Shown here one piece after another: positions 215 to 49,114 of a DNA stretch of 64,000 bases. A program made the translations under genes and the position numbers. The notes under the pieces were generated by a model. It was not told where the DNA came from. It was given only the letters and a program-made list of their open reading frames with translations, and did not search any database. The stretch's first letter is position 1, and every line of letters begins with the position of its first letter. Source of the stretch: Escherichia phage KIT06; sequence record OQ349392.1; one strand, written 5' to 3'.

Positions 215-2392
215 ATGATTATCACCACTGAAAAAGAAACTATTCTTGGTAATGGTTCTAAATCAAAAGCATTTAGCATCACAGCATCTCCTAAAGTATT
301 TAAAATTCTGTCATCTGATTTGTATACAAACAAGATTCGCGCAGTAGTACGTGAATTGATTACCAACATGATTGATGCACATGCTCTCAATGGAAATCCT
401 GAAAAATTTATCATTCAAGTTCCAGGACGATTAGATCCGCGATTTGTTTGTCGAGATTTTGGTCCGGGTATGAGCGATTTTGATATTCAAGGTGATGATA
501 ATTCTCCTGGGTTGTATAATTCATACTTTAGTTCATCTAAGGCTGAATCTAACGATTTCATTGGTGGATTTGGTTTAGGTTCTAAATCTCCGTTTAGTTA
601 TACTGATACATTTAGTATTACTTCATATCATAAAGGCGAAATTCGTGGTTATGTAGCTTACATGGATGGTGACGGTCCGCAGATTAAACCTACATTCGTA
701 AAAGAAATGGGTCCAGATGATAAAACTGGTATTGAAATCGTAGTTCCAGTTGAAGAAAAAGACTTTAGAAACTTTGCTTATGAAGTTTCTTATATCATGC
801 GACCATTCAAAGATTTGGCTATCATTAATGGTCTTGACCGTGAAATTGATTATTTTCCGGATTTTGATGACTATTACGGCGTAAATCCAGAAAGATACTG
901 GCCAGATCGTGGTGGATTGTATGCTATCTATGGCGGTATTGTTTATCCTATTGATGGTGTTATTAGAGACCGTAACTGGTTAAGCATCCGCAATGAAGTG
1001 AATTATATTAAGTTTCCAATGGGTTCACTTGATATTGCTCCATCGCGTGAGGCTCTTTCACTAGATGATCGTACTCGTAAAAATATTATTGAGCGTGTTA
1101 AAGAGCTCAGTGAGAAAGCATTTAATGAAGATGTAAAACGATTTAAAGAATCTACATCTCCTCGTCATACATACCGTGAATTGATGAAGATGGGATATTC
1201 TGCTCGAGATTATATGATTAGTAATTCGGTCAAATTCACGACTAAAAATCTGTCATATAAAAAGATGCAGAGCATGTTTGAACCTGACAGTAAGTTATGT
1301 AATGCAGGAGTTGTGTATGAAGTAAATCTTGACCCTCGACTGAAACGCATTAAGCAAAGCCATGAAACTTCAGCCGTTGCATCAAGTTATCGTCTGTTTG
1401 GTATTAATACGACAAAAATTAATATTGTTATTGATAATACTAAAAATCGTGTTAATATTGTCCGTGGATTAGCACGTGCATTAGATGATAGCGAATTTAA
1501 TAACACCTTAAATATTCATCACAATGAGCGGCTTCTGTTTATTAATCCAGAAGTAGAATCGCAGATTGATTTGCTTCCTGATATTATGGCAATGTTTGAA
1601 AGTGATGAAGTTAACATTCATTATTTGTCAGAAATCGAAGCTTTAGTTAAAAGTTATATTCCAAAGGTAGTAAAAAGTGCAGCTCCTCGTCCTAAAGCTG
1701 CTACTGCATTTAAGTTTGAAATTAAAGACGGGCGCTGGGAAAAAGAGGAACTGTTTACGCTCACATCAGAAGCAGATGAAATTACTGGTTATGTAGCATA
1801 TATGCATCGTTCTGATATTTTCTCTATGGATGGTACTACATCGCTTTGTAATCCATCTACGAGTATTTTGACCCGTATGGCTAATCTTATTGGCATTAAT
1901 GAATTTTATGTTATTCGTCCACTTTTGCAGAAAAAGGTAAAAGAACTTGGTCAGTGTCAATGTATTTTTGAAACTTTGCGTGATTTATATGTAGATGCTT
2001 TTGATGATGTAGATTATGATAAGTATGTAGGTTATTCAAGTTCAGCTAAACGATATATTGATAAAATTATCAAGTATCCTGAGTTAGATTTTATGATGAA
2101 GTACTTCAGTGTAGATGAAGTTTCCGAAGAATATACTCGCCTTGGTAATATGGTTAGTTCATTGCAGGGTATATATTTCAACGGTGGAAAAGGTACCATC
2201 GGTCATGACATCTGGACAGTAACTAATCTTTTTGAAACACTATCATATAATGCTTCAAAAAACAGTGATAAAATGGTTGCTGAGTTTACCAAGAAATTCC
2301 GTATTGTTTCCGACTTCATCGGATATCGCAACTCTTTAAGTGATGATGAAGTTTCCCAAATCGCTAAAACTATGAAGGCCCTTGCGGCCTAA
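215..2392 (+). CDS. rIIA: rIIA membrane-associated protein (725 aa), GHKL-ATPase-like N-terminal region
   Basis: 725 aa ORF, same length as T4 rIIA as I recall; recognised sequence; followed directly by rIIB. Confidence 0.93.
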
Positions 2393-2403: not shown

Positions 2404-3342
2404 ATGTACAATATTAAATGCCTGACCAAAAACGAACAAGCTGAAATTGTCAAACTGTATTCAAGTGGTAATTATACCCAACAGGAATTGGCTTATTGGA
2501 AAGATGTATCGGTGGACACAATCCGTCGTGTTTTGAAAAATGCTGAAGAAGCTGAACGCTCTAAAGTTACCATTAGCGGTGACATTACAGTTACAGTTAA
2601 TAGCGATGCAGTTATTGCTCCAGTTGCTAAATCTGACATTATTTGGAATGCATCTAAAAAATTCATTTCAATTACTGTTGACGGTGTAACTTATAACGCA
2701 ACTCCTAATACTCATTCAAACTTCCAAGAAATTCTTAATCTGCTTGTAGCGGATAAGTTGGAAGAAGCGGCACAAAAAATTAACGTTCGTCGCGCTGTTG
2801 AAAAATATATTTCCGGTGATGTTCGAATTGAAGGTGGAAGCTTGTTCTATCAAAATATTGAATTACGGTCTGGTTTAGTTGATCGTATTCTCGATTCGAT
2901 GGAAAAAGGCGAAAACTTTGAATTTTATTTTCCGTTCTTGGAAAATCTGTTGGAAAACCCAAGCCAAAAAGCGGTATCTCGACTCTTTGATTTCTTGGTA
3001 GCAAACGATATTGAAATTACAGAAGACGGCTACTTCTATGCTTGGAAAGTAGTTCGCAGCAATTACTTTGACTGTCATTCAAATACTTTTGATAACAGCC
3101 CTGGTAAAGTAGTTAAAATGCCACGTACTCGTGTGAATGACGATGATACACAAACTTGTTCTCGTGGTCTGCATGTGTGTTCTAAATCTTATATTCGTCA
3201 CTTTGGCAGTTCAACCAGTCGAGTTGTAAAAGTTAAAGTGCATCCTCGTGATGTAGTATCAATTCCGATTGATTACAACGATGCTAAAATGCGTACCTGC
3301 CAATACGAAGTAGTTGAAGACGTTACTGAACAATTCAAATAA
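2404..3342 (+). CDS. rIIB: rIIB protein (312 aa)
   Basis: 312 aa ORF, length and position match T4 rIIB; SD-like AGGAAA upstream. Confidence 0.92.
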   Translation: MYNIKCLTKNEQAEIVKLYSSGNYTQQELAYWKDVSVDTIRRVLKNAEEAERSKVTISGDITVTVNSDAVIAPVAKSDIIWNASKKFISITVDGVTYNATPNTHSNFQEILNLLVADKLEEAAQKINVRRAVEKYISGDVRIEGGSLFYQNIELRSGLVDRILDSMEKGENFEFYFPFLENLLENPSQKAVSRLFDFLVANDIEITEDGYFYAWKVVRSNYFDCHSNTFDNSPGKVVKMPRTRVNDDDTQTCSRGLHVCSKSYIRHFGSSTSRVVKVKVHPRDVVSIPIDYNDAKMRTCQYEVVEDVTEQFK

Positions 3343-3651: not shown

Positions 3652-4209
3652 ATGCAGAAAACGAATCCGGGTTTACAGAGACTATTTCAGATTCCGACAT
3701 TTACCCTATCGAACAGTGACTTGACTAGTGAAATGAAGGTCAAAATTGCTGACACAGCAAGATACTCTTTAAAACAAAACCCGAACCAGGATAAAGCAGA
3801 AGTTATCGAAAGATGCCGTATCGCTGTGTATGCAGAGTTTTTTGTAGCAGATTGGCTGAGTGGGTATGTTAATAAAGGTCAAGAGGATGTTAATGACCCG
3901 TATACATATGCGTGGGATGTACTGGCGCATCCAAAATACTGTGGGCTTCGTGTAGAAGTCAAAACACATCAAACTGACTCACGTTGGATTTCGGTAACAA
4001 CCGGATGCAGCGGGGAGTATCCATATGGTTCTGGAATAAATCTAGGGCCCATTCTGAATCATCAGGTCGCTGACTGTATAATTATATTCAACACTAAAGA
4101 AATTCATCCAGGTGTCATCCAGTACACTCCGAAGTTCATCGGTGATAGAGAAGACCTTCGTAAGGTTGTAAGAAAAAGCAACTACAGCGGATGGTATCTT
4201 TCCATTTAA
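3652..4209 (+). CDS. denB: Endonuclease IV (185 aa)
   Basis: 185 aa, same length as T4 DenB as I recall; position between rIIB and ndd. Confidence 0.8.
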   Translation: MQKTNPGLQRLFQIPTFTLSNSDLTSEMKVKIADTARYSLKQNPNQDKAEVIERCRIAVYAEFFVADWLSGYVNKGQEDVNDPYTYAWDVLAHPKYCGLRVEVKTHQTDSRWISVTTGCSGEYPYGSGINLGPILNHQVADCIIIFNTKEIHPGVIQYTPKFIGDREDLRKVVRKSNYSGWYLSI

Positions 4210-4225
4210 AAATTTTCACAAAACG

Positions 4226-4264
4226 GTTTACATACCACAAGGACTGTGGTACTATACAACTATC
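4226..4264 (+). promoter_or_regulatory. T4-type early promoter (GTTTAC, 18 bp spacer, TACTAT) including conserved 20-mer TGTGGTACTATACAACTATC
   Basis: GTTTAC at 4226-4231, TACTAT at 4250-4255, upstream A-rich tract; 20-mer shared with 3 other sites. Confidence 0.6.
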
Positions 4265-4282: not shown

Positions 4283-4546
4283 ATGAAATTTAAATTTTAT
4301 TACGCTAAACATAAAATAACTGATGAGTTTGTGTCAGTTGAATATTCTAGCGATGATGAAGGTATGATTTATACTCGTTTGGGACTATCGCATTGGGAGT
4401 CTGATACGCCTTATTTTTCAACTCCTGAAGAAATTACACGCTTAGTTAATGGTCATATGAATGACCACTGGGATGTAATTCTTACAGATAGTCTTAAAGC
4501 GGCTATTAATAGTAATGAAATGAAAATCGCTGAGATTGAACTATGA
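4283..4546 (+). CDS. Hypothetical protein (87 aa)
   Basis: ORF with SD GGAGGAG 8 nt upstream of ATG. Confidence 0.5.
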   Translation: MKFKFYYAKHKITDEFVSVEYSSDDEGMIYTRLGLSHWESDTPYFSTPEEITRLVNGHMNDHWDVILTDSLKAAINSNEMKIAEIEL

Positions 4547-4731
4547 GTTCATTATGGTGGTGTTTTGTTTGGTTAATTAGTATTCCATTAATTTGTTTAA
4601 CATTTACTTTTGTGATGAGGTTATTATGAAAATTTTGAATTCTGTACTTATTGCTTGTGCGTGGTGGGTTGCGCAAGTTTCGGCAGTAGTGATTGGTATT
4701 CACATTTATTACGAATATTTTTAAAAAAGTT

Positions 4732-4770
4732 GTTTACAAGACTGTTCCTCTGTGGTACTATACAACTATC
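4732..4770 (+). promoter_or_regulatory. T4-type early promoter (GTTTAC-N18-TACTAT) with conserved 20-mer
   Basis: GTTTAC 4732-4737, TACTAT 4756-4761, 20-mer 4751-4770. Confidence 0.6.
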
Positions 4771-6335: not shown

Positions 6336-7664
6336 ATGCAACTGAATAATCGCGATTTAAAAAGTATCATTGATAATGAAGCATTGGCTTATGCTATGTA
6401 CACGGTTGAAAACCGTGCTATTCCAAATATGATTGATGGATTTAAGCCAGTTCAACGATTTGTTATCGCTCGAGCTCTTGATTTGGCACGGGGAAATAAA
6501 GATAAGTTTCACAAACTTGCTTCTATTGCAGGTGGTGTAGCAGACCTTGGATATCATCATGGTGAAAACTCTGCGCAAGACGCGGGGGCTTTGATGGCTA
6601 ACACGTGGAATAATAACTTTCCTTTGTTAGATGGTCAAGGAAACTTTGGTTCTCGTACCGTTCAAAAAGCAGCAGCAAGTCGTTATATTTTTGCTCGTGT
6701 AAGTAAAAATTTCTATAACGTATATAAAGATACTGAATATGCTCCGGTACATCAAGATAAAGAACACATTCCGCCTGCTTTCTATTTGCCTATTATTCCT
6801 ACCGTTCTTCTTAATGGTGTTTCCGGTATTGCAACTGGTTATGCAACTTACATTCTTCCTCATAGTGTTTCTTCTGTCAAGAAAGCTGTACTACAAGCTC
6901 TTCAAGGAAAGAAAGTAACTAAACCGAAGGTAGAATTCCCAGAATTTCGCGGTGAAGTCGTTGAAATTGACGGTCAATATGAAATTCGTGGAACGTACAA
7001 GTTTACTTCACGAACTCAAATGAATATCACTGAGATTCCGTATAAGTATGATCGTGAAACTTATGTGAGTAAAATCTTAGACCCGCTTGAAGATAAAGGC
7101 TTCATTACGTGGGATGATGCTTGCGGCGAGCATGGTTTTGGCTTCAAAGTTAAATTCCGTAAAGAATATTCTTTAAGCGATAACGAAGAAGAACGCCATG
7201 CAAAAATTATGAAAGACTTTGGATTGATTGAGCGTCGTTCTCAGAATATTACAGTCATCAACGAGAAAGGAAAACTGCAAGTTTACGATGACGTAGTTGA
7301 TTTAATCAAAGACTTCGTTGAAGTTCGTAAAACTTATGTCCAAAAACGAATTGATAACAAAATCAAAGAAACTGAATCAGCATTTCGTTTAGCCTTTGCC
7401 AAGGCACATTTCATTAAGAAAGTAATTTCAGGTGAAATTGTTGTGCAAGGTAAAACTCGCAAAGAACTGACCGAAGAACTTTCTAAAATTGATATGTATT
7501 CTTCTTATGTTGATAAACTAGTTGGAATGAATATTTTTCATATGACTTCCGACGAAGCAAAGAAACTTGCTGAAGAAGCTAAAGCTAAAAAAGAAGAAAA
7601 CGAATATTGGAAAACTACTGATGTAGTTACAGAATACACTAAAGATTTAGAGGAAATCAAATGA
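6336..7664 (+). CDS. 52: DNA topoisomerase II medium subunit (GyrA-like, 442 aa)
   Basis: 442 aa; recognised N-terminal sequence; same length as T4 gp52. Confidence 0.93.
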   Translation: MQLNNRDLKSIIDNEALAYAMYTVENRAIPNMIDGFKPVQRFVIARALDLARGNKDKFHKLASIAGGVADLGYHHGENSAQDAGALMANTWNNNFPLLDGQGNFGSRTVQKAAASRYIFARVSKNFYNVYKDTEYAPVHQDKEHIPPAFYLPIIPTVLLNGVSGIATGYATYILPHSVSSVKKAVLQALQGKKVTKPKVEFPEFRGEVVEIDGQYEIRGTYKFTSRTQMNITEIPYKYDRETYVSKILDPLEDKGFITWDDACGEHGFGFKVKFRKEYSLSDNEEERHAKIMKDFGLIERRSQNITVINEKGKLQVYDDVVDLIKDFVEVRKTYVQKRIDNKIKETESAFRLAFAKAHFIKKVISGEIVVQGKTRKELTEELSKIDMYSSYVDKLVGMNIFHMTSDEAKKLAEEAKAKKEENEYWKTTDVVTEYTKDLEEIK

Positions 7665-7810
7665 GTCCATTCATTGGTATTACAAGCGCTGCATTAGTAT
7701 CCGGTAGCATTTTACTGGCGGGTTTAGGTGTTGTTCCAGCCGTAGCAGGAGGTCTTCTTGCGTTCGGAATTCAACGTGTTATCATGACAGTTATCACAGT
7801 CATGCAGTAA
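7661..7810 (+). CDS. Small hydrophobic peptide (49 aa)
   Basis: ATGA overlap with gene 52 stop; glycine/alanine-rich hydrophobic sequence. Confidence 0.4.
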   Translation: MSPFIGITSAALVSGSILLAGLGVVPAVAGGLLAFGIQRVIMTVITVMQ

Positions 7811-7815
7811 TTTTA

Positions 7816-7841
7816 GGGAGAGCCTCGGCTCTCCCTTTTTT
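7816..7841 (+). terminator. Rho-independent terminator (GGGAGAGCC...GGCTCTCCC hairpin plus T6)
   Basis: Near-perfect inverted repeat followed by TTTTTT. Confidence 0.7.
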
Positions 7842-7866
7842 ATTTCAAAATTTTTTTCACAAAACG

Positions 7867-7905
7867 GTTTACAACCAAAGCATACTGTGGTACTATACAA
7901 CTATC
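7867..7905 (+). promoter_or_regulatory. T4-type early promoter upstream of motA (GTTTAC-N18-TACTAT)
   Basis: GTTTAC 7867-7872, TACTAT 7891-7896, conserved 20-mer 7886-7905. Confidence 0.65.
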
Positions 7906-7937
7906 AACTACTGATACAGAATTACGGAGATTAGAAA

Positions 7938-8573
7938 ATGTCTAAAGTAACTTACATCATCAAAGCTTCTAACGATGTTCTGAATGAAAAAACTGCTGCG
8001 ATTTTAATTACTATTGCTAAGAAAGATTTCATTACAGCTGCAGAAGTTCGTGAGGTGCATCCAGATTTAGGTAATGCAGTAGTTAATAGTAATATTGGGG
8101 TATTGATTAAAAAAGGCCTGGTGGAGAAATCTGGTGATGGATTAATCATTACCGGTGAAGCTCAGGATATTATTTCAAATGCAGCAACTTTATACGCACA
8201 GGAAAATGCTCCGGAACTACTGAAAAAACGAGCAACTCGTAAAGCTCGCGAGATTACTTCTGATATGGAAGAAGATAAAGATTTCATGTTAAAACTTTTA
8301 GATGAAAATGGATTTGTTCTTAAAAAAGTTGAAACTTATCGTAGTAACTATCTCGCTATTTTAGAAAAACGCACTCACGGAATTCGTAATTTTGAAATTA
8401 ATAACAATGGAAATATGCGAATTTTTGGATACAAAATGATGGAACATCATATTCAGAAATTTACTGACATTGGTATGTCATGCAAAATCGCTAAAAATGG
8501 TAATGTGTATCTTGACATTAAACGCTCAGTAGAAAACATTGAAGCTGTAATCACTGTAGCATCTGAACTGTGA
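7938..8573 (+). CDS. motA: MotA middle-transcription activator (211 aa)
   Basis: 211 aa, same length as T4 MotA; position adjacent to gene 52. Confidence 0.88.
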   Translation: MSKVTYIIKASNDVLNEKTAAILITIAKKDFITAAEVREVHPDLGNAVVNSNIGVLIKKGLVEKSGDGLIITGEAQDIISNAATLYAQENAPELLKKRATRKAREITSDMEEDKDFMLKLLDENGFVLKKVETYRSNYLAILEKRTHGIRNFEINNNGNMRIFGYKMMEHHIQKFTDIGMSCKIAKNGNVYLDIKRSVENIEAVITVASEL

Positions 8574-8583
8574 GGAATAAATA

Positions 8584-8913
8584 ATGAACAAGTTAGAAAT
8601 TATCAATGAACTTCGCCGTTGTGCAGAACCCACTCAAGAGGGGTGGGACATCTGGTACCACGGAGCTTATCTTGGAACTATCGTAAAGATTAAGACTGGT
8701 AAATACATGATTATTCGTGAAAGTAAAGATGCTCCAGTAGGTATTCGCAATAATTTCATGGCAGCGATAAGTTCTTTTACAGATTCAGCTTACGAAATTT
8801 ACCTTGCTGATTATAAAGAATTTCAGGAATCTCAACCAGTTATTCGCTCAATTGGTGTTAACAAAGCTCAACAGAAAACTTTGTGGCAACGTATTAAAGG
8901 ATGGTTTAAATGA
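8584..8913 (+). CDS. Hypothetical protein (109 aa)
   Basis: ORF, SD GAGGAATAA upstream. Confidence 0.5.
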
Positions 8914-9371
8914 AAACTTTTAAAGAACGTTTAGCTCTGTTAGATAAAGCTTTGTCACGTGAGACTCCAGAAAGTTTGGCGGCTAAATTAGCTTCTTACA
9001 GTGGTGAATACACAGAACAAAATGTTTTAGATGAAGTTCCTGAAATCTGTTGGCAGTCTGCATACTGGGATGAAAACCAAAAGTACCAACGACGGATTGT
9101 TTGCGCAGCCAACCGTTTTAAATTAAAAGATGGACGAACTCTTATTATTCCAGGTGCTCGTCATTATTCTAAAGATATGGCAGCAGTTTTAGATGTAGTT
9201 AAACCTCAATTAGTTACTCAGCAAGTTTGTGATGATGACCAAGGGTTTATTGACCAATATAGTAATTATTGGACACGTGAAGAAGCAATGATTATTGCAA
9301 CTTACGCTGGACAAGTACGTGTTGAACGCGGCGGTAGTGAAAAAGAACTTTACTCTGAGGACCTTTACTAA
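8910..9371 (+). CDS. Hypothetical protein (153 aa)
   Basis: ORF with ATGA overlap to upstream gene. Confidence 0.5.
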
Positions 9372-17942: not shown

Positions 17943-20900
17943 TTATTCAACCCATTCAAATTTAACCGTTTTATTCGCTGGGTCAGGAATAATGCGAACA
18001 TTACCAATTCGTAAGAAATCACGAATAGTAAGATTCCCCATTGTAGCATTATCAGATGGTAAAGCACCAATATCAGATGGTTGAGGAGGGTTACCTCCGT
18101 CAAATACCTGAACAAAACTCGACCAAGAGTTTTTGGTTTTCTGCCATGTACGTGTCCAGCGAGTGGTACGTGCTTCTGGAGTCGTTGGATAAGTAATCCA
18201 ATCTTGGTAAAGCGAATCAAGTGTGTTACCAAATTGAGTCAATGTACCAGGAGATTTAACTTCTTCGCCACGTTCTAAGTATGGAAGTCCAGTCACTTCA
18301 TTAGTTTTTTCAACCATTTTAAAATAACCCGGGAATTGGTTATAAGTAGCTGAATCATTAATATCGATTGACCAGAATCCTACAGTATCAGATGTTGGCG
18401 CACGGGTATATAAGTCAGATGTTTTAATGCCCTGAGAACGAATTCTCGAGTTAACAGTTAAGCCACCTGAGTTTATAGTAACACCTTTGGCAACGATTAA
18501 GCCTTCACCAATCGTTACTTGACCGGATGCATTGTTAATAGCTAAAGGACGTAATCCATTAAAACCACCAGTTTGGTCACCTGAATTAGTTAGCATAAAA
18601 TAGACATTAGCACCATCATTACGAATAAAGAATCCGTAATTACCACTAATAGCTCTAAAAGCATTCGATGATTTGCTAATGAATTCACCATTGGCTGTAA
18701 CTGAACGACCGAATGTTGCAGTGCCATTCACATTCATCAAACCGGAAGCATTAACATTTATTGGCATTACAGTACCATTAATGATAAACGCTATACTACC
18801 ATCTTTATTGCGTTGAGAATAAAAGTGATGAGATGTTTCATCGCCAACTTCAAACACGGTAGAACGAGTCGTATCCGAGCCGCCGCCAAACTGATTTCCC
18901 CATACTCTGATAGTCATCGTCTGTGCTGGGTTAGTTCCAGTTTGAGGTCCTTTTTCAAAAATCAGACGAGTTGCTGTTCCAGAGTTAGAAATAGTTAATG
19001 TACTATTTGCCGAAACTGAACCACCAAACGTAGCAGTACTAGATGATACAAGAGGGGCACTCAGATTCGTTTGTTGGGTTAAGGTTAGTGAACCATTAAC
19101 CGTCTGTGCAATATCCCTACGAATGAACTGGGATGAATCTAGACCATCCAGTAAATTACTATCTACGGCTTTTGCTTTTAATGGCAAGTAATTTGCTAAT
19201 ACACGGTTTAATTCATACGGTGATACTGCATAGCTATTTTTCTCGTATAATTCTAACGACTGTGTTGAACCAACTGTATCATTACCAACGAATGTAATTG
19301 AACCAGATGAAGTTTTAACAAAGCCTCTTATCGCAGTAGTAGCTGCCCAAGTAGGTTCACTCTGCGCAATCCATTTTAAATTTTTTGGAGATACAGCAGT
19401 ATTTGCTGACGTTCCAGCCACAGTTTCAGTCTGAGTTGCAACTTTAATAACACCTTCTTGCGATTCGGTAGATTTAGTACCTAAAAGCTTTTTAGGAGTT
19501 ATTAAAACATTATCCAATGTTCCTGCAGCAGCTTCAACTTGTGTAGCTACACGAAGTGTACCACGCTGTGTCTCATTTGCTTCAAGAATATTAAGGGTAT
19601 AATGGTCCCAGAGAGTTCCTGATTCAACTAATCCAGATAGAGCAACAACAGAAGTACGATCAGTACTATTAAATCTGGTTTTAATTTTTAATGGTGTAGA
19701 GATACGAGTATCGTCGACGCCCGCGTCGAATTCAACTTGTGTAGCAATTTCAGCTATACCACTTAAACTTTCAGTTGCTATACGGTCATTTAAAGTTTTA
19801 GGAGTGACTGCACGAGTATAATCAGTTCCTGTATTAACTTCACTTTGCGTAGCAATTTCAATTAAACCAATTCTTCCATCAGTTGATGTCTTTTTATGTA
19901 ACGTTTCTGGCGTTACAACAGCATTTGCCCATCCTTGCTGACTTTGTCCAGCAATTACTTCACTTTCAACTGCTAAAATTACTGCACCCTGTTGAGTAGG
20001 CGTAGCTTTATACTGATCCAAAGCTTTAGGTGAAACAACTAAATTATTAGTGTTTTTATTATAAACGTTTGTACCATTTAATTCACGACTAGAAGCTGGA
20101 GTAGCTCCTGCGGTAGATACAAAGGTTACAATACCAGATAATGATTCAGAACCTTGACGAGCTTGAAGCTTTTTAGGAGTGATGATTGTAGTATCATCAG
20201 TACCTGCATTAGTTTCCTGTTGCGTAGCAATTTCAGCAACACCTCTGCGAGTTTCAGTAGCAGTTCTTTCATTCAGCTTTTTAGGAGTGATGATAATATC
20301 GTCAGCAAAAGAGAATGTGGTGTTCTGATTCACTTGAGCAGTAGTTGCTATTCTTGCAATACCTCTGCGAGTTTCAGTAGCAGTGCGATTAGCTAACGTT
20401 TCTGGAGTAATTGCTAATTCTTTTTGTGGAGAATTTTCTAAATCGACGTTAGCTTGAGCTTGTGTAGCTAAAGCAATTACGCCTAATCTTGCTCTAGTAG
20501 AATCATTTAAAGAATCAACTCTTTCTACGGTTGGAACGTTTTGCTGTACAACCCAATATTTTCCATCAGAATCTTCTATATAAGCAAGCTCTAAAACTGG
20601 AACATAATTAGTTTCACCGTTAAAAACCAATTCTTGAACAGTTACCCATTTAGTTTCAGGCGGATATTCTGAACGTTTTGGGAATTGCAGCAATTGAACT
20701 GAAGAAGCAATTTTATCTTCACCGGCAGCTTTGATTTTAACTGTTTGTCCTTTTCTCATGTAATTCATGGAAATTTTAACAGTATCACCAACAGAAATAT
20801 TAGTTGGAAGCTGAAGTTCAATTGTTTGAGCTGTTCCGTTATTCGCACCAAATACCATAACTTCTTCATTTGGACGAATATTTGAATTAGTTGTTATAAT

Positions 20901-24177: not shown

Positions 24178-25086
24178 ATGTTTAAACGTAAATCTACTGC
24201 TGAACTCGCTGCGCAAATGGCTAAACTGGCTGGAAATAAAGGTGGTTTTTCTTCTGAAGATAAAGGCGAGTGGAAACTGAAACTCGATAATGCGGGTAAC
24301 GGCCAAGCAGTAATTCGTTTTCTTCCGTCTAAAAATGATGAACAAGCACCATTCGCCATTCTTGTAAATCACGGTTTCAAGAAAAATGGTAAATGGTATA
24401 TTGAAAACTGTTCATCTACCCACGGTGATTACGATTCTTGTCCAGTATGTCAGTACATCAGTAAAAATGATTTGTATAACACTGACAATAAAGAGTACGG
24501 TCTTGTTAAACGTAAAACTTCTTACTGGGCTAACATTCTTGTAGTAAAAGACCCAGCTGCTCCAGAAAATGAAGGTAAAGTATTTAAATACCGCTTCGGT
24601 AAGAAAATCTGGGATAAAATCAATGCAATGATTGCAGTTGATGTTGAAATGGGTGAAACTCCGGTTGATGTAACTTGTCCGTGGGAAGGTGCTAACTTTG
24701 TACTGAAAGTTAAACAAGTTTCTGGTTTTAGTAACTACGACGAATCTAAATTCCTGAATCAATCTGCGATTCCAAACATTGATGATGAATCTTTCCAGAA
24801 AGAACTGTTTGAACAGATGGTTGACCTTTCTGAAATGACTTCTAAAGATAAATTCAAATCGTTTGAAGAACTGAGCACTAAGTTCAGTCAAGTTATGGGA
24901 ACTGCTGCTATGGGTGGTGCCGCAGCAACTGCTGCTAAGAAAGCTGATAAAGTTGCTGATGATTTGGATGCATTCAATGTTGATGACTTCAAAACAAAAA
25001 CTGAAGATGATTTTATGAGCTCAAGCTCTGGCAGTTCATCTAGTGCTGATGACACGGACCTGGATGACCTTTTGAATGACCTTTAA
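24178..25086 (+). CDS. 32: Single-stranded DNA binding protein gp32 (302 aa)
   Basis: Recognised sequence incl. acidic Ser/Asp-rich C-terminus; SD AAGGAAA upstream. Confidence 0.95.
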
Positions 25087-25108
25087 TAGATTATATTACT
25101 AATTAATT

Positions 25109-25133
25109 GGGGACCCTAGAGGTCCCCTTTTTT
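25109..25133 (+). terminator. Rho-independent terminator after gene 32
   Basis: GGGGACC-CTAGA-GGTCCCC hairpin plus TTTTTT. Confidence 0.7.
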
Positions 25134-25158
25134 ATTTCAAAAATTTTTTCACAAAACG

Positions 25159-25197
25159 GTTTACAACCAAAGCATACTGTGGTACTATACAACTATC
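25159..25197 (+). promoter_or_regulatory. T4-type early promoter (GTTTAC-N18-TACTAT), near-identical copy of the motA promoter cassette
   Basis: GTTTAC 25159-25164, TACTAT 25183-25188; 70 bp identical to 7836-7905 except 1 nt. Confidence 0.65.
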
Positions 25198-25210
25198 GGC
25201 AATACTGCTG

Positions 25211-25462
25211 ATGATGATTAAAGAGGAAAATAACATGGCTAAAATTGATATTGATGTTGTTGATTTTGAATATATTGAAGAAATTATTCGTAATCGTTAT
25301 CCTGAACTCCGTATTACAAGCGCACTAAATGACCCCAATTGCAATGTTTCAGTTGTTATTGAAGGTCCTTTAAATCGTCTTAAACAATTTATGGTTAATG
25401 AATATTGTGACGGTATGGATGCTGAAGATGTAGAATTTTACACAGGATTTATTGAGCAGTAA
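25211..25462 (+). CDS. Hypothetical protein (83 aa), frd-region small ORF
   Basis: ORF with SD upstream. Confidence 0.5.
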
Positions 25463-25506: not shown

Positions 25507-25887
25507 ATGTATACTGGTAGAAAATATGAACTTGTTCCAAGACTTATTGATACATTTATTAATTATAGTCCACGTTCTAATTCATCAATAGTTAAAGCTA
25601 TTCGAGATAATGGCGGATGGTTTGAAGTTAAAGAAGTTTCCTTCGCTAATGGATATAAAGCAGTAAAACACATTGAATGCGCAAATGGAAAGCATTTTTA
25701 CCTTAAAGATAGACTTTTAGAAATTTGTGAAGACGAATTTCATTGTTTTCGCGAGTATAAAGAATCGATTTCTGAAGAAGATGAAGTCAAAGACAAGGTT
25801 TCTGGCGTAACAAAAATTCACTGCATTGTAGACGAAAACAATGTAGATGAAATCATTGAACTTTTGCGAAAAACTTTCAAAAAGTAG
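25507..25887 (+). CDS. Hypothetical protein (126 aa)
   Basis: ORF with SD GAGGAAAA upstream. Confidence 0.5.
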   Translation: MYTGRKYELVPRLIDTFINYSPRSNSSIVKAIRDNGGWFEVKEVSFANGYKAVKHIECANGKHFYLKDRLLEICEDEFHCFREYKESISEEDEVKDKVSGVTKIHCIVDENNVDEIIELLRKTFKK

Positions 25888-25916
25888 TTTACAGAAGGGT
25901 AGTAGTGTGATACTAT
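25887..25916 (+). promoter_or_regulatory. Early promoter with internal inverted repeat (GTTTAC-N18-TACTAT)
   Basis: GTTTAC 25887-25892, TACTAT 25911-25916, GGGTAGTAGT/ACTATTACCC inverted repeat. Confidence 0.55.
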
Positions 25917-25941
25917 TACCCTATCAACTAAGGAGAATAAA

Positions 25942-32375: not shown

Positions 32376-33962
<1,587 letters not shown>

Positions 33963-33965
33963 GCT

Positions 33966-34019
33966 GTTTACAAGTCCCTCGTGTTGTGTTACAGTAGTCT
34001 TACTGACATAACATGAGGA
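33966..34019 (+). repeat. 54 bp promoter/5'UTR cassette, copy 1 (GTTTAC, imperfect inverted repeat, SD)
   Basis: Identical 54-mer also at 49061-49114. Confidence 0.8.
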
Positions 34020-40065: not shown

Positions 40066-40090
40066 GGACTCCTTCGGGAGTCCTTTTTTA
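40066..40090 (+). terminator. Rho-independent terminator
   Basis: GGACTCC-TTCG-GGAGTCC hairpin plus TTTTTTA. Confidence 0.7.
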
Positions 40091-40113
40091 TTTTCCAAAG
40101 ATTGCACAAAGTT

Positions 40114-40143
40114 GTTTACAGTATAGTTCCTTTGTGATAGTAT
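40114..40143 (+). promoter_or_regulatory. Early promoter (GTTTAC-N18-TAGTAT)
   Basis: GTTTAC 40114-40119, TAGTAT 40138-40143. Confidence 0.55.
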
Positions 40144-40170
40144 TATCTTACACAAACAAAGGAGAATAAA

Positions 40171-44903: not shown

Positions 44904-47000
44904 ATGATGGAACTCATTACAGAATTATTTGACGAAGATACTACTCTTCCGATTACAAACTTAAATCCAAAGAAGAAAATACCGCAAATTTTTTCAGTTC
45001 ATGTTGATGACGCAATTGAACAACCAGGCTTTCGTTTATGTACCTATACATCTGGAGGTGATACTAACCGTGATCTAAAGATGGGCGATAAAATGATGCA
45101 CATTGTTCCTTTTACATTAACTGCTAAAGGTTCAATTGCTAAATTGAAAGGTCTCGGTCCAAGCCCAATTAATTACATCAATTCAGTTTTTACTGTTGCG
45201 ATGCAAACGATGCGTCAGTATAAAATTGATGCCTGCATGCTTCGTATTCTTAAGTCTAAAACTGCCGGTCAAGCTCGACAAATTCAAGTTATTGCTGATA
45301 GACTTATCCGTAGTCGTTCGGGTGGCAGATACGTCCTTCTTAAGGAACTCTGGGATTACGATAAAAAGTACGCATATATTCTTATACATCGCAAAAATGT
45401 ATCACTAGAAGACATTCCAGGAGTTCCGGAAATTAGTACCGAGCTCTTTACTAAAGTTGAATCGAAAGTCGGCGATGTTTATATCAATAAAGATACTGGA
45501 GCTCAAGTAACTAAAAATGAGGCAATTGCTGCATCTATTGCGCAAGAAAATGATAAGCGTTCTGACCAAGCTGTAATCGTTAAAGTTAAAATTTCCCGTA
45601 GAGCAATTGCGCAAAGTCAGTCATTGGAATCTTCTAGATTTGAAAGCGAATTATTCCAGAAATATGAATCTACCGCAGCTAATTTCAATAAACCCGCTAC
45701 AGCTCCTTTAATTCCCGAAGCAGAAGAAATGAAGCTTGGAATTAATTCATTAGCTTCTAAAACTAAGGCAGCAAAAATTATTGCTGAAGGAACTGCAGAT
45801 GAACTTCACTATGACTATAAATTCTTTTCAAAAAGTGAGGTTAATGAAGTTTCTGAAAAAATTAAAGACGTAATTCTTAATGCGATTAAAAATGAACCAA
45901 CTACTTCAATAAAATGTTTAGAGAAGTATGCAGCAGCTATTAATAAATTCTTTGAAGAATATAAAGATACTTGGCTTGATAAACATAATAAAACCCGTAA
46001 AGGACAGCCAGATGAAGTCTGGGAAGAAATAACTAAAAATTCCTGGAACGCAGCAAAAACTAAATTCCTCAAACGAATGATTTATAGCTTTTCTGGAATT
46101 GGTGCAGGTCCAATGATTGATATTACTATTGCCCGTGATGGTTCTAAATATACTCCATCACAAAAGCGCGGCATTAGAGAATATTGTGGTTCAGGATATA
46201 CTGACATCAATAATCTTCTTTTAGGACGCTACAATCCAGAACGATATGATGTAATGAGTGAAAAAGAAATTGAATCTGCGATAAATAATTTAGATTCAGC
46301 CTTTGAAAATGGTGACCGTATACCAGAAGGCATTACAGTTTATCGTGCTCAAAGTATGACTGCTCCTATATACGAAGCGCTAGTTAAAAATAAAGTGTTC
46401 TATTTCAGAAATTTTGTATCTACTTCTTTAACTCCTATCATTTTTGGACGTTTTGGAATTACACATGCTGGTATCGGTCTTTTAGAACCAGAAGCTCGTA
46501 ATGAATTAACAGTTGATAAAAATGAAGAAGGAATAACTATTAATCCGAACGAAATAAGAGCGTATAAAGAAAATCCTGAATACGTTAAAGTTCAAATAGG
46601 ATGGGCAATTGATGGAGCTCATAAAGTTAATGTTGTATATCCAGGGAGTCTCGGAATAGCAACAGAAGCTGAAGTAATTCTACCACGCGGATTGATGGTC
46701 AAAGTTAATAAAATAACTGATGCTTCTAATAATGACGGAACAACATCTAATAACACAAAACTCATTCAAGCTGAAGTTATGACTACGGAAGAACTCACCG
46801 AATCAGTAATTTATGACGGTGACCGTCTAATGGAAACTGGTGAAGTAGTTGCAATGACAGATGATATTGAAATAGAAGACAGAGTTGACTTTGCATCATT
46901 TGTTTCATCAAATGTTAAACAGAAAGCAGAATCATCTCTCGGAATTATTGCGTCTTGCATAGATATTACAAACATGCCTTACAAGTTCGTTCAAGGATAA
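44904..47000 (+). CDS. alt: ADP-ribosyltransferase Alt (about 697 aa), capsid-packaged
   Basis: N-terminus MELITELFDEDTTLPITNL as T4 Alt; C-terminal half has R / S-T-S / E-x-E ART signatures (YR, FVSTSL, EAEV); start probably ATG 44907. Confidence 0.85.
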   Translation: MMELITELFDEDTTLPITNLNPKKKIPQIFSVHVDDAIEQPGFRLCTYTSGGDTNRDLKMGDKMMHIVPFTLTAKGSIAKLKGLGPSPINYINSVFTVAMQTMRQYKIDACMLRILKSKTAGQARQIQVIADRLIRSRSGGRYVLLKELWDYDKKYAYILIHRKNVSLEDIPGVPEISTELFTKVESKVGDVYINKDTGAQVTKNEAIAASIAQENDKRSDQAVIVKVKISRRAIAQSQSLESSRFESELFQKYESTAANFNKPATAPLIPEAEEMKLGINSLASKTKAAKIIAEGTADELHYDYKFFSKSEVNEVSEKIKDVILNAIKNEPTTSIKCLEKYAAAINKFFEEYKDTWLDKHNKTRKGQPDEVWEEITKNSWNAAKTKFLKRMIYSFSGIGAGPMIDITIARDGSKYTPSQKRGIREYCGSGYTDINNLLLGRYNPERYDVMSEKEIESAINNLDSAFENGDRIPEGITVYRAQSMTAPIYEALVKNKVFYFRNFVSTSLTPIIFGRFGITHAGIGLLEPEARNELTVDKNEEGITINPNEIRAYKENPEYVKVQIGWAIDGAHKVNVVYPGSLGIATEAEVILPRGLMVKVNKITDASNNDGTTSNNTKLIQAEVMTTEELTESVIYDGDRLMETGEVVAMTDDIEIEDRVDFASFVSSNVKQKAESSLGIIASCIDITNMPYKFVQG

Positions 47001-47003
47001 ATC

Positions 47004-49061
47004 ATGGAACTTATTACAGAATTATTTGACGGCGCTTCGGCGCCGGTTGTTAACTTAAATCCTAAGCATAAAATACCTCAAATTTTTGCTATTCAAGCCG
47101 GCGAAGAAAGTGTGCTTCCTGGATTTAGATTTTGTACATACACCTCTGGCGGTGATACAAATAAAAACGTTAAGCCAGGCGATAAAATGATGCATATCGT
47201 AATGATAGGTGTTAATGAGAAACTATCATTAGTTAAACTTAAAAACTTGGGTGGAAATCCAATTGGTGTCATTAATGCAGTTTTTGATACTGCTCTTCAA
47301 ACAATGAAACAGTATAAAATTGACGCATGCTTATTCCGCGTACTAAAGAGTAAAACAAATGGCGCTGCTCGTCAAATGCAAGTTATTGCCGACCGTTTAG
47401 TACGTACTAAAGGAGCAGGTCGATATGTTCTTTTAAAGGAAATCTGGGACTATGATAAGAAATATGCATATATTATGGTTTACCGTAAAAATGCCAATTT
47501 AGAAGACATTCCAGGTGTACCTCCTATTTCAACTGAGTTATTCACAAAAGTTGAATCAAAGGTTGGTGATGTTTATGTAGATGTTAAAACAGGTAATGCT
47601 GTTCCTAAAGCTGTTGCTGTTGCTGCTTCTATTGCTTTAGAAAATGATAAGCGTACGGATCAAGCTGTTATTCAGAAAACTAAAATTAGCCGTCGATTAG
47701 CAGCTCAGGCTCAATATTCTACTGTCGATGCTTCACTTCAGGGTGATAGCTTCGCTGCTAAGAAATATCAAGAGTTTGAATCTAAAGTTCCGGTATATAA
47801 AGCAGAAGGACCAATGAACTCTGGCGTTATTCAGGTTGGTTCAAACTTCAGTAAAGGAGCTATCGGTGGTATGAGAAGTGCTTCTCGTTTTAAATCTAGT
47901 GATTATGAACTAGAAAGCTTCAGAAATCATATTGCATTGGCTCATGCACGTTTACGTGATCCATCTATCAAGTTACAGAGCGATATAACATATCAAGGTT
48001 CTCAGGAATATTTAAAGAATAAAGAATTTTTTGATTATAAAACTGATAAAATTTTAAGCGATCTCGCTGACATTAATATTTCTAATAGCTTTGATGTTAT
48101 TAAGAAAATTATCAATGATTTAGTTAAAGGTTCTAAAGCCACGCCAGATGAAAAGGTAGCTATTGTTCAATTTGTCATGAATGGCATTTATAAATTGATT
48201 AATGAGTCTGCTTCTCAAGCGTATGAATATGCAAGTACTGAAGTACCCCCAAAAGGATTAACTCGGGCTGAGTCTGATGTAATTGAAGATTATTGCGCAG
48301 ATTCATATGTTGAAATGAACTCGTTCCTTTTAGGTAAACCAGATTCTACTCGTGAAGAATACATGGAACGAGCTATTAAACACATCGAGACAATGGATTC
48401 TGCCTTTGCCAAAGGATCAGTTCTTCCTCCAGGAACTACGCTTTATCGTGGACAAGAAGTTACTTTTAAAACTTTACGCCATAATATTGAAAATAAAATG
48501 TTCTATTTCAAGAACTTCGTATCAACATCGCTTAAACCAAATATCTTCGGTGAGTATGGTAAAAACTATATGGCCCTAGATGATTCTGGTGCAGTATTTT
48601 CTGGTGAAGGAGAAGGTTCAGTTGATGCTGAAGATTTAATGCATATGGGCAGTCACTCTGCTTACGCGAATGAAGATGCTGAAACTAGCGTGGGTATGGT
48701 AATTAAAGGGGCTGAGCGAATCAAAGTTATCGTTCCAGGTCATTTATCAGGATTTCCATCAGAAGCTGAAGTTATTCTACCGCGCGGAATTTTACTGAAG
48801 ATTAATAAAGTAAGTACGTACTTTATGAAAGAAACTGCTTATAACAAGTATCTAATAGAAGGTACAATCGTTCCTCCTTCTGAACAATTAGAGGAATCGG
48901 TATATGATGGCGAGCATCTAATGGAAACTGGCGAAGTTCGTCCAATGGCTGGATTTAATCAATTCCTTGTAGAAGAATCAAAAGAAGAGGAAAACGAAGT
49001 TTCTCAAATCTTGGCTTCTTTGGTTAACATCAACGGAATGTCTAAAAAGTTCAAAATGTAG
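47004..49061 (+). CDS. Second Alt-like ADP-ribosyltransferase paralog (685 aa)
   Basis: N-terminal ~230 aa closely parallel the upstream alt; divergent C-terminal half keeps YR...FVSTSL...EAEVILPRG motifs. Confidence 0.7.
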   Translation: MELITELFDGASAPVVNLNPKHKIPQIFAIQAGEESVLPGFRFCTYTSGGDTNKNVKPGDKMMHIVMIGVNEKLSLVKLKNLGGNPIGVINAVFDTALQTMKQYKIDACLFRVLKSKTNGAARQMQVIADRLVRTKGAGRYVLLKEIWDYDKKYAYIMVYRKNANLEDIPGVPPISTELFTKVESKVGDVYVDVKTGNAVPKAVAVAASIALENDKRTDQAVIQKTKISRRLAAQAQYSTVDASLQGDSFAAKKYQEFESKVPVYKAEGPMNSGVIQVGSNFSKGAIGGMRSASRFKSSDYELESFRNHIALAHARLRDPSIKLQSDITYQGSQEYLKNKEFFDYKTDKILSDLADINISNSFDVIKKIINDLVKGSKATPDEKVAIVQFVMNGIYKLINESASQAYEYASTEVPPKGLTRAESDVIEDYCADSYVEMNSFLLGKPDSTREEYMERAIKHIETMDSAFAKGSVLPPGTTLYRGQEVTFKTLRHNIENKMFYFKNFVSTSLKPNIFGEYGKNYMALDDSGAVFSGEGEGSVDAEDLMHMGSHSAYANEDAETSVGMVIKGAERIKVIVPGHLSGFPSEAEVILPRGILLKINKVSTYFMKETAYNKYLIEGTIVPPSEQLEESVYDGEHLMETGEVRPMAGFNQFLVEESKEEENEVSQILASLVNINGMSKKFKM

Positions 49062-49114
49062 TTTACAAGTCCCTCGTGTTGTGTTACAGTAGTCTTACTG
49101 ACATAACATGAGGA
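49061..49114 (+). repeat. 54 bp promoter/5'UTR cassette, copy 2
   Basis: Identical to 33966-34019. Confidence 0.8.

Follow-up and report, generated by a model that had tools for sequence, protein, structure and literature searches.

Terminator-promoter cassettes before motA and behind gene 32 of a T4-like phage, and a probable exchange of promoter spacer between them

The DNA analysed here (the window) is a 64,000-nucleotide stretch of Escherichia phage KIT06 (OQ349392.1, one strand), and two of its gene junctions carry nearly the same regulatory sequence, one just before motA and one just behind gene 32. We consider it very likely that both copies are compact terminator-promoter cassettes separating transcription units and that the gene-32 copy was patched with sequence from the motA copy, a reading built on the observed anatomy, copy number, allele pattern, presence or absence of a module at motA, and chimeric cassettes. 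The sequences support the original prediction that both copies are promoter-early stem-loop (PeSL) cassettes of T4-like phages. The kind is already known, PeSLs having been published for T4 and PST (Comeau, Arbiol and Krisch 2014); as the cassette belongs to textbook T4 regulation and is a recombination motif published for this genus, the finding is mainly one of correct recognition. What the comparison with relatives appears to add is that the near-identity of the pair is lineage-specific and stems from ectopic conversion, the gene-32 site being multi-allelic with alleles from three cassettes, and that the motA copy borders a common promoter-ORF module present at another cassette site in a different genus.

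The window belongs to a T4-like phage (Tequatrovirus) and carries the T4 map in reverse order. A megablast search with positions 6800-9000 returned 479 phage records with query coverage of at least 80% and top identities of 96-98%; these are Tequatrovirus genomes, in which the stretch is annotated as topoisomerase II (gp52), MotA.1 and MotA. The closest match varied with the segment (SH-2, 98%, for 6800-9000; bov9_1, 100%, for 25090-25215), and the shared 70-mer described below was matched at 100% by P922 and NBEco003. The T4 reference order, reversed, runs rIIB, denB, ndd, ac, 52, motA.1, motA, arn, asiA, t and continues with 38-34, rnh, dsbA, 33, 59, 32 and frd.3. The corresponding features of the window, all but the last taken from the ORF list, are as follows.

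215-2392, plus strand: rIIA-sized ORF
2404-3342, plus strand: rIIB-sized ORF
3652-4209, plus strand: 185-aa ORF at the denB position, followed by a run of small ORFs
6336-7664, plus strand: 442-aa ORF, gp52 by order and annotated relatives
7661-7810, plus strand: 49-aa ORF, motA.1 by annotated relatives (stop codon 7808-7810)
7938-8573, plus strand: 211-aa ORF, motA; the equivalent stretch is annotated MotA in relatives
3' of the 211-aa motA ORF, minus strand: gene block
plus strand: 310-aa ORF at the rnh position and 217-aa ORF at the gene 59 position
24178-25086, plus strand: 302-aa ORF, gene 32 (stop codon 25084-25086)
25235-25462, plus strand: likely frd.3 (228 nt, the length of T4 frd.3)

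The ORFs and the annotated phages at 96-98% identity give gp52/motA.1/motA and 32/frd.3 as flanking genes, and the ORF layout taken with the T4 gene order puts the motA copy at the junction of motA.1 with motA, and its partner at that of gene 32 with frd.3.

Both copies are built in the same order. An upstream stop codon is followed by a GC-rich hairpin, six T and an A+T-rich tract ending in TTTTCACAAAACGG; then come TTTACA, a 17-nt spacer that ends in TGg, TACTAT and a conserved start region; and the 3' end consists of a site-specific leader, a Shine-Dalgarno sequence and the ATG of motA or frd.3. Before motA this layout (GC-rich hairpin, T-run, A+T-rich tract, TTTACA-17-TGnTACTAT promoter) fills 7815-7940, and behind gene 32 it fills 25109-25237. 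It had been proposed for 7811-7905 that hairpin terminator, T-run and early promoter form one unit, and terminator scan, promoter scan and folding found all of these parts there. The basis of each assignment is given in brackets.

7815-7836, plus strand: terminator hairpin 3' of motA.1, AGGGAGAGC-CUCG-GCUCUCCCU, 9 pairs, 6 of them G-C (terminator scan)
7836-7867, plus strand: T-run (7836-7841) and A+T-rich tract, TTTTTTATTTCAAAATTTTTTTCACAAAACGG (equal to 25128-25159 except for 1 nt)
7868-7873, plus strand: -35 hexamer TTTACA, fitting the T4/PST PeSL consensus TTTACW (promoter scan)
7874-7888, plus strand: 15-nt spacer core ACCAAAGCATACTGT, allele A or motA type (sequence comparison with relatives)
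7888-7896, plus strand: extended -10, TGg and TACTAT, with a 17-nt spacer and TG present (promoter scan)
7897-7905, plus strand: conserved start region ACAACTATC, last part of the shared 70 nt (in all four 20-mer copies)
7906-7940, plus strand: site-specific leader, GGAG Shine-Dalgarno (7926-7929), motA ATG (7938-7940) (sequence)
25109-25127, plus strand: terminator hairpin 3' of gene 32, GGGGACC-CUAGA-GGUCCCC, 7 pairs, 6 of them G-C (terminator scan)
25128-25159, plus strand: T-run and A+T-rich tract (sequence, register comparison)
25160-25165, plus strand: -35 hexamer TTTACA (promoter scan)
25166-25180, plus strand: 15-nt spacer core ACCAAAGCATACTGT, the motA-type allele and proposed converted patch (T4 has AGCATAAAGCTTTAT here)
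25180-25197, plus strand: TGg and TACTAT extended -10 with start region ACAACTATC (20-mer search, promoter scan)
25198-25237, plus strand: site-specific leader, AAAGAGGAAA Shine-Dalgarno, likely frd.3 ATG (25235-25237) (sequence)

The motA-copy hairpin folds at -20.0 kcal/mol (z -5.65) and is site-specific, being unlike the gene-32 hairpin, which folds at -14.3 kcal/mol (z -2.16), modestly better than shuffled sequence. Predicted terminators are annotated at both sites in related records, for example KAW1E185 and wV7, and the Omega interposon of Prentki and Krisch (1984) reportedly uses the gene 32 terminator. When the whole window was scanned against Rfam at gathering thresholds, nothing was hit; the cassettes thus coincide with no described RNA family. 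The stretch 7836-7867 would act as the U-tract of the terminator and, by position, perhaps as an UP-like element, a role suggested by its A/T content and position and by the description of T4 early promoters (PMC2988021). From the consensus and the T4 literature we infer that both copies have terminator and promoter activity.

Among relatives, each of the two terminator hairpins has two forms, one the exact reverse complement of the other (L001, L012, L013, L017, L018, L021, L033): GGGAGAGCCTCGGCTCTCCC and GGGAGAGCCGAGGCTCTCCC at the motA site (window 7816-7835), GGGGACCCTAGAGGTCCCC and GGGGACCTCTAGGGTCCCC at the gene-32 site (25109-25127). As the stems are palindromic, the flip affects the loop alone, and it looks like an inversion through template switching inside the hairpin.

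Comparison of the window with itself for repeats paired 7808-7905 with 25100-25197 over 98 nt at 87% identity, and the mismatches are concentrated in the hairpins (GGGAGAGCCTCGGCTCTCCC against GGGGACCCTAGAGGTCCCC). From the T-run to the end of a shared 20-mer, 7836-7905 and 25128-25197 are identical at 69 of 70 positions, just as the original prediction had it (70 bp identical apart from 1 nt), and the sole difference, A4T7 against A5T6, falls in the A/T tract. When the eleven early promoters of GTTTAC type in the window were set in one register, every other pair agreed at 23-52 of 70 positions; the identity of the pair therefore reaches well beyond the hexamers and the promoter consensus, and the possibility that the two sites resemble each other in the hexamers only falls away. 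The 20-mer itself, TGTGGTACTATACAACTATC, occurs exactly four times on the plus strand (4245, 4751, 7886 and 25178), with none expected from 100 dinucleotide shuffles. Its presence at motA and gene 32 had been correctly recognized; the window has four copies, not just these two. The copies at 4245 and 4751 lack a hairpin, and two further relatives of the cassette were found in the window.

4213-4264, plus strand: promoter-only copy 3' of denB, without hairpin, with spacer TACCACAAGGACTGT (donor type of allele D)
4719-4770, plus strand: promoter-only copy in the denB-ndd plastic region (repeat and 20-mer searches)
25874-25925, plus strand: more distant family member, an early promoter within the frd.3-frd block (repeat search, promoter scan)
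40066-40152, plus strand: third full cassette with hairpin (GGACTCCTTCGGGAGTCC), T-run and early promoter, more diverged (35-36/70 to the pair)

A blastn search with the 70-nt core matched 540 phage records at 2678 places, about 5 per genome.

The start region of the copy at 4719-4770 alternates in relatives between ACAACTATC and TACCCTATC. Over 4754-4770, the window, ESh29 and UFV-AREG1 have GGTACTATACAACTATC, and T4, bov9_1 and KAW1E185 have GGTACTATTACCCTATC, which is also the start region found at the 25909 promoter. The alternation looks like another small patch swapped between promoters.

The motA cassette of T4 is the same as that of the window, including the spacer. The T4 gene-32 cassette shares with it only 39 nt (T-run to GTTTACA) and the 17 nt GGTACTATACAACTATC, and the 15 nt between these blocks are AGCATAAAGCTTTAT, not ACCAAAGCATACTGT. 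The T4 nrdC.11/nrdC.10 cassette has this AGCATAAAGCTTTAT as its spacer and shares the layout of hairpin, T-run and promoter as well as the upstream block. We read the gene-32 site in relatives, with 16 genomes aligned segment by segment, and found at least five discrete spacer alleles, the hairpin, A/T tract, -10/start region and leader being near-constant and site-specific across the 16 genomes.

Allele A, ACCAAAGCATACTGT, equal to the motA cassette: gene-32 site of the window, bov9_1, JE01 and KAW1E185, and of UFV-AREG1 with 1 change
Allele B, AGCATAAAGCTTTAT, equal to the T4 nrdC.11/nrdC.10 cassette: gene-32 site of T4 and AugustSocin, and of A6-6 with 2 changes
Allele C, TCCTTGTCCTTCCAT, no donor found: gene-32 site of PST, Shfl2, wV7, ACG-C40 and ECML-134, with close variants in RB32, PYps55T and IMG/VR contig L002
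Allele D, TACCACAAGGACTGT, equal to the denB-downstream promoter (window 4226-4255): gene-32 site of ESh29 and JK1
Allele E, TACACCAAAGACTGT, no donor found: gene-32 site of sb3

Across these 16 genomes any two spacers differ on average by 46%, compared with 3% for the 34 nt next to them, and a chance match of 15 out of 15 positions has a probability of about 3e-9 at this base composition. Discrete spacer alleles, three of them equal to other cassettes, within site-specific hairpins and leaders argue for short-patch ectopic gene conversion, and its repeated occurrence at the gene-32 site would be the simplest reading. Donor sites for alleles C and E were not found in the cassettes compared. 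The gene-32 site of PYps55T, which had seemed altered because of low coverage, turned out to be a normal site with its variant of allele C.

Counts of allele-specific 40-mers in the phage collection (records/places: A 436/467, B 451/513, C 243/279, D 142/153) exceed one place per record by 11-62 for each allele, so that the same promoter allele occupies two sites in tens of genomes; about 36 carry allele C twice, and T2 has allele B at one locus and C at another. The window's gene-32 allele was found at 99% identity or more in only 19 of 501 records. The 69/70 identity thus belongs to a minority allele (roughly 20-30 of about 500 database genomes) and, as far as these sequences go, is a lineage-specific state and not general to T4-type phages. 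At the motA site, allele A was read in 9 of 11 relatives; JE01 is 1 nt off and fHoEco02 has allele B, for which reason we abandoned the notion of an invariant motA spacer. That the transfer ran from motA to gene 32 is suggested by frequency alone, the motA site having allele A in 436 records and the gene-32 site being multi-allelic. At the gene-32 site, allele A is combined with three or more flank haplotypes, which could reflect several conversion events, or one plus ordinary inter-phage recombination.

These data bear on whether any recombination is needed. The copies might be alike only through strong selection for the extended T4 early promoter consensus, which is unusually long (PMC2988021), and the UP/-35 and -10/start blocks are indeed common to several copies in the window and in T4. 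However, the pair is identical in the 15-nt spacer as well, and only the 33935/49030 pair also shares its whole spacer, the spacer cores of other promoters being unrelated; the gene-32 spacer diverges by 46% between close relatives whose flanks diverge by 3%; and three of its alleles are the spacers of other named cassettes. Selection alone is thereby largely refuted, and we regard it as very improbable. Slightly less probable still is an autonomous small mobile element, MITE-like or of homing type, inserting copies at new sites. About five copies of the 70-nt core per genome (540 records, 2678 places) would suit such an element, as would the speculation of Arbiol et al. that a dedicated protein might bind the stem-loop (PMC2839356), but hairpins and leaders differ between copies, identity ends at functional promoter boundaries and does not span the whole unit, the cassettes showed neither terminal inverted repeats nor target-site duplications, every copy keeps its gene junction throughout the relatives sampled, and variation is limited to an internal patch. 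That reads of one copy were placed at the other during assembly or consensus calling is the least credible explanation of all, for although the repeats are short and A/T-rich and their single difference lies in a homopolymer tract, the same gene-32 allele occurs with gene-32 flanks in the independently sequenced bov9_1, JE01, KAW1E185, UFV-AREG1 and phiC600P9, and a 70-nt repeat is shorter than typical sequencing reads.

According to the conversion reading, each copy would be a compact regulatory cassette between two transcription units. The intrinsic terminator (GC-rich hairpin and U-tract) would end the upstream transcript, 52/motA.1 or gene 32, with the T-run and A+T-rich tract also positioned as an UP element; a strong host-sigma70 early promoter (TTTACA, 17 nt, TGn, TACTAT) would restart transcription right after infection, and the new transcript, for motA or frd.3, would begin with a short leader that has a Shine-Dalgarno sequence of its own. 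At gene 32, a stretch of at minimum the 15-nt spacer and at maximum the shared 70 nt would have been replaced by motA-copy sequence in an ectopic homologous exchange, and the 39-nt and 17-nt blocks already common to both copies, as in T4, would have primed it. The mechanism would be either gene conversion or template switching. This cassette family would also provide crossover points for the gain or loss of promoter and ORF modules.

A broader proposal, to which we give somewhat better than even weight, is that the gene-32 cassette repeatedly receives ectopic conversion of 15-70 nt from at least three cassettes some 17-90 kb away (motA, nrdC.10 and denB-downstream), that spacer alleles circulate among Tequatrovirus sites, that terminator loops flip, and that the cassettes are template-switching hotspots, the allele pattern being a sequence-level record of PeSL-PeSL recombination across core blocks. 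If so, such recombination could be read from alleles; the PeSL papers, in the parts at hand, inferred it only from ORF gains and losses and from mini-circles detected by PCR. The multi-allelic spacer amounts to a natural experiment, which indicates that at most 40 nt of flanking identity suffices for non-allelic exchange between regulatory cassettes, and it bears on how alleles of promoter strength and small ORF modules may spread among T4-like phages. Annotators should not mistake the occurrence of one 70-mer at several loci for misassembly.

We also compared gene content at the cassettes across relatives. An exact-pattern scan of IMG/VR with the 19-mer TTTCACAAAACGGTTTACA found 10 stretches on 7 contigs, too few for a survey, and the survey of relatives was done in the GenBank phage collection. 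In one of these contigs, L006, the motA cassette is separated from motA by a 75-aa ORF and then a second early promoter; a 23-nt direct repeat, CTATCAAATAAATGAACTGAAAC, with one copy after each promoter, bounds this insert. This ORF, which 142 phage records contain, is missing from the window and T4 (loci of the ORF and its homologue: L006 1366-1593, L027, L029, L028 1165-1401). EcWhh-1 has it in the position seen in L006. In fHoEco02 it follows a chimeric cassette, which joins the motA hairpin to a B-type spacer; the spacer of L006 is A-type, so crossovers fell at different points within the cassette. Salmonella phage Melville (Gelderlandvirus) encodes a protein 63% identical to the 75-aa ORF between homologues of nrdC.11 and nrdC.10, the site of the third T4 cassette, as the first of three promoter-ORF modules. 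Neither the 75-aa ORF nor the 87-aa ORF at 4283-4546 discussed below had a match in Pfam.

At the gene-32 copy, ORF gain or loss was not seen in the relatives read, a deletion in phiC600P9 being the only structural change. The expectation that gene content would reveal module exchange is thus borne out at motA and not at gene 32, and the more general claim that such cassettes serve as recombination substrates agrees both with the gene-32 spacer alleles that come from other cassettes and with the variable promoter and ORF module at motA. The motA and gene-32 copies are direct repeats 17.3 kb apart, and the DNA between them encloses motA, asiA, t, the tail-fibre genes 34-38, rnh, 33, 59 and 32. 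From T4 genetics, the tail-fibre genes, 33, 59, 32 and motA are essential. Excision between the copies should therefore give no viable phage; as it would lose 17 kb including the tail-fibre genes, the pair is presumably linked by conversion, not by ORF shuffling.

The phiC600P9 deletion (L032, MT630408.1 142300-143000) fuses the 3' end of gene 32 (…ACGGACC) to the spacer (CCAAAGCATACTGT…), taking out the last gene 32 codons, the terminator, the A/T tract and the -35 hexamer, and the record has a 1179-nt 'single stranded DNA-binding protein' running into frd.3. When therapeutic T4-like phages are engineered, repeated cassettes may be points of instability, as this deletion illustrates.

Between denB and ndd, the gene right behind the promoter varies among relatives, and in the window it is the 87-aa ORF (4283-4546). 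Only the last few codons of this ORF are left in T4 (L001), fused to the promoter leader, and bov9_1 (L012), ESh29 and UFV-AREG1 have an extra 68-aa ORF exactly between the Shine-Dalgarno/ATG and the 87-aa ORF.

The T4 and PST PeSLs are described in PMC4122927 as a stem-loop just upstream of TTTACW-N17-TAYWAT, with an A+T-rich region before it, then a Shine-Dalgarno sequence and a start codon. Both copies have a matching promoter (TTTACA-17 nt-TACTAT with TG), a hairpin just upstream of it (7815-7836 and 25109-25127), the further element TTTTTTATTTCAAAA(A/T)TTTTTTCACAAAAC, and, at the 3' end, GGAG (7926-7929) with the ATG at 7938 for motA and AAAGAGGAAA with the ATG at 25235 for frd.3. They are multi-copy as well, with four exact 20-mers in the window and about five places for the 70-mer per genome. 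Both have the GC-rich hairpin followed by six T of an intrinsic terminator and all four RNA polymerase recognition elements of the T4 early promoter class, the UP element by A/T content and position; T4 early promoters are UP/-35/TGn/-10 promoters with an unusually long consensus (PMC2988021). Since the anatomy fits this description and the published PeSL definition, the PeSL label is right. Association with ORF gain or loss holds for the motA copy only, not for the gene-32 copy. Both of these copies lie at borders of conserved genes (52/motA.1 and motA; 32 and frd.3), and the promoter-only copies 4245 and 4751 lie within the variable denB-ndd region.

The T4/PST PeSLs belong to the same genus and have the same layout and the same proposed role as exchange points, and PMC4122927 illustrates the denB-ndd region (ndd.4/.5 exchange), where the window has its copies 4245 and 4751. 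That text does not name the motA and gene-32 copies; its subject is ORF insertions, deletions and replacements and mini-circles, and no replacement of promoter spacers between distant copies was found described in it. The term 'gene conversion' is absent from PMC2839356 and was not met in the parts of PMC4122927 that were consulted. The PeSLs of RB49 and phi1 are, like the cassettes here, composite terminator and early promoter motifs, conserved over about 100 bp, with chimeric copies arising by crossovers at varied points within the motif (PMC2839356). Their promoter and terminator activity was measured by lacZ fusions, and recombination between copies was shown experimentally, mini-circles from neighbouring PeSLs being detected by inverse PCR on infected cells (PMC2839356). 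Their promoters are near-perfect TTGACA/TATAAT, whereas the window pair has TTTACA/TACTAT, and their stem-loop, rich in G-runs and C-runs, usually lies between or overlaps the -35 and -10 elements (PMC2839356); in the window the stem-loop lies upstream with a T-run after it, as in a classical intrinsic terminator. T4 has cassettes with UP/-35/TGn/-10 architecture at the same two junctions (PMC2988021). Unlike the window pair, the T4 pair shares only its 39-nt upstream and 17-nt -10/start blocks and has differing spacers, the T4 gene-32 copy matching the nrdC.10 copy instead of the motA copy. As in concerted evolution by ectopic gene conversion generally, discrete multi-nucleotide patches appear to have been copied between non-allelic repeats with flanks unchanged, but the repeats here are only about 70 nt long, are separated by 17 kb to about 90 kb and have a regulatory, not a coding, role, and the recipient is multi-allelic across a phage genus.

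Three further repeats were noted in the window. A second pair of early promoters, 33966-34019 and 49061-49114, is identical at 54 of 54 nt, a stretch that spans GTTTACA, the -10 TACAGT and the leader up to the Shine-Dalgarno sequence. The first lies 3' of a 386-aa ORF (32802-33962), which we take to be RNA ligase 1, and 5' of a 168-aa ORF; the second lies 3' of a second Alt-like gene and 5' of a 96-aa DUF5498 protein. Two paralogous genes in tandem, 44904-47000 (698 aa) and 47004-49061 (685 aa), each encode an ADP-ribosyltransferase domain (PF03496); their nucleotide sequences are about 71% identical across long stretches, and they appear to be a duplicated alt gene. Finally, within a minus-strand 1289-aa ORF at the position of gene 34 (long tail-fibre), 19435-20411 contains five copies of a 68-nt unit at 60-74% identity and 108-375 nt spacing, an internal coding repeat.
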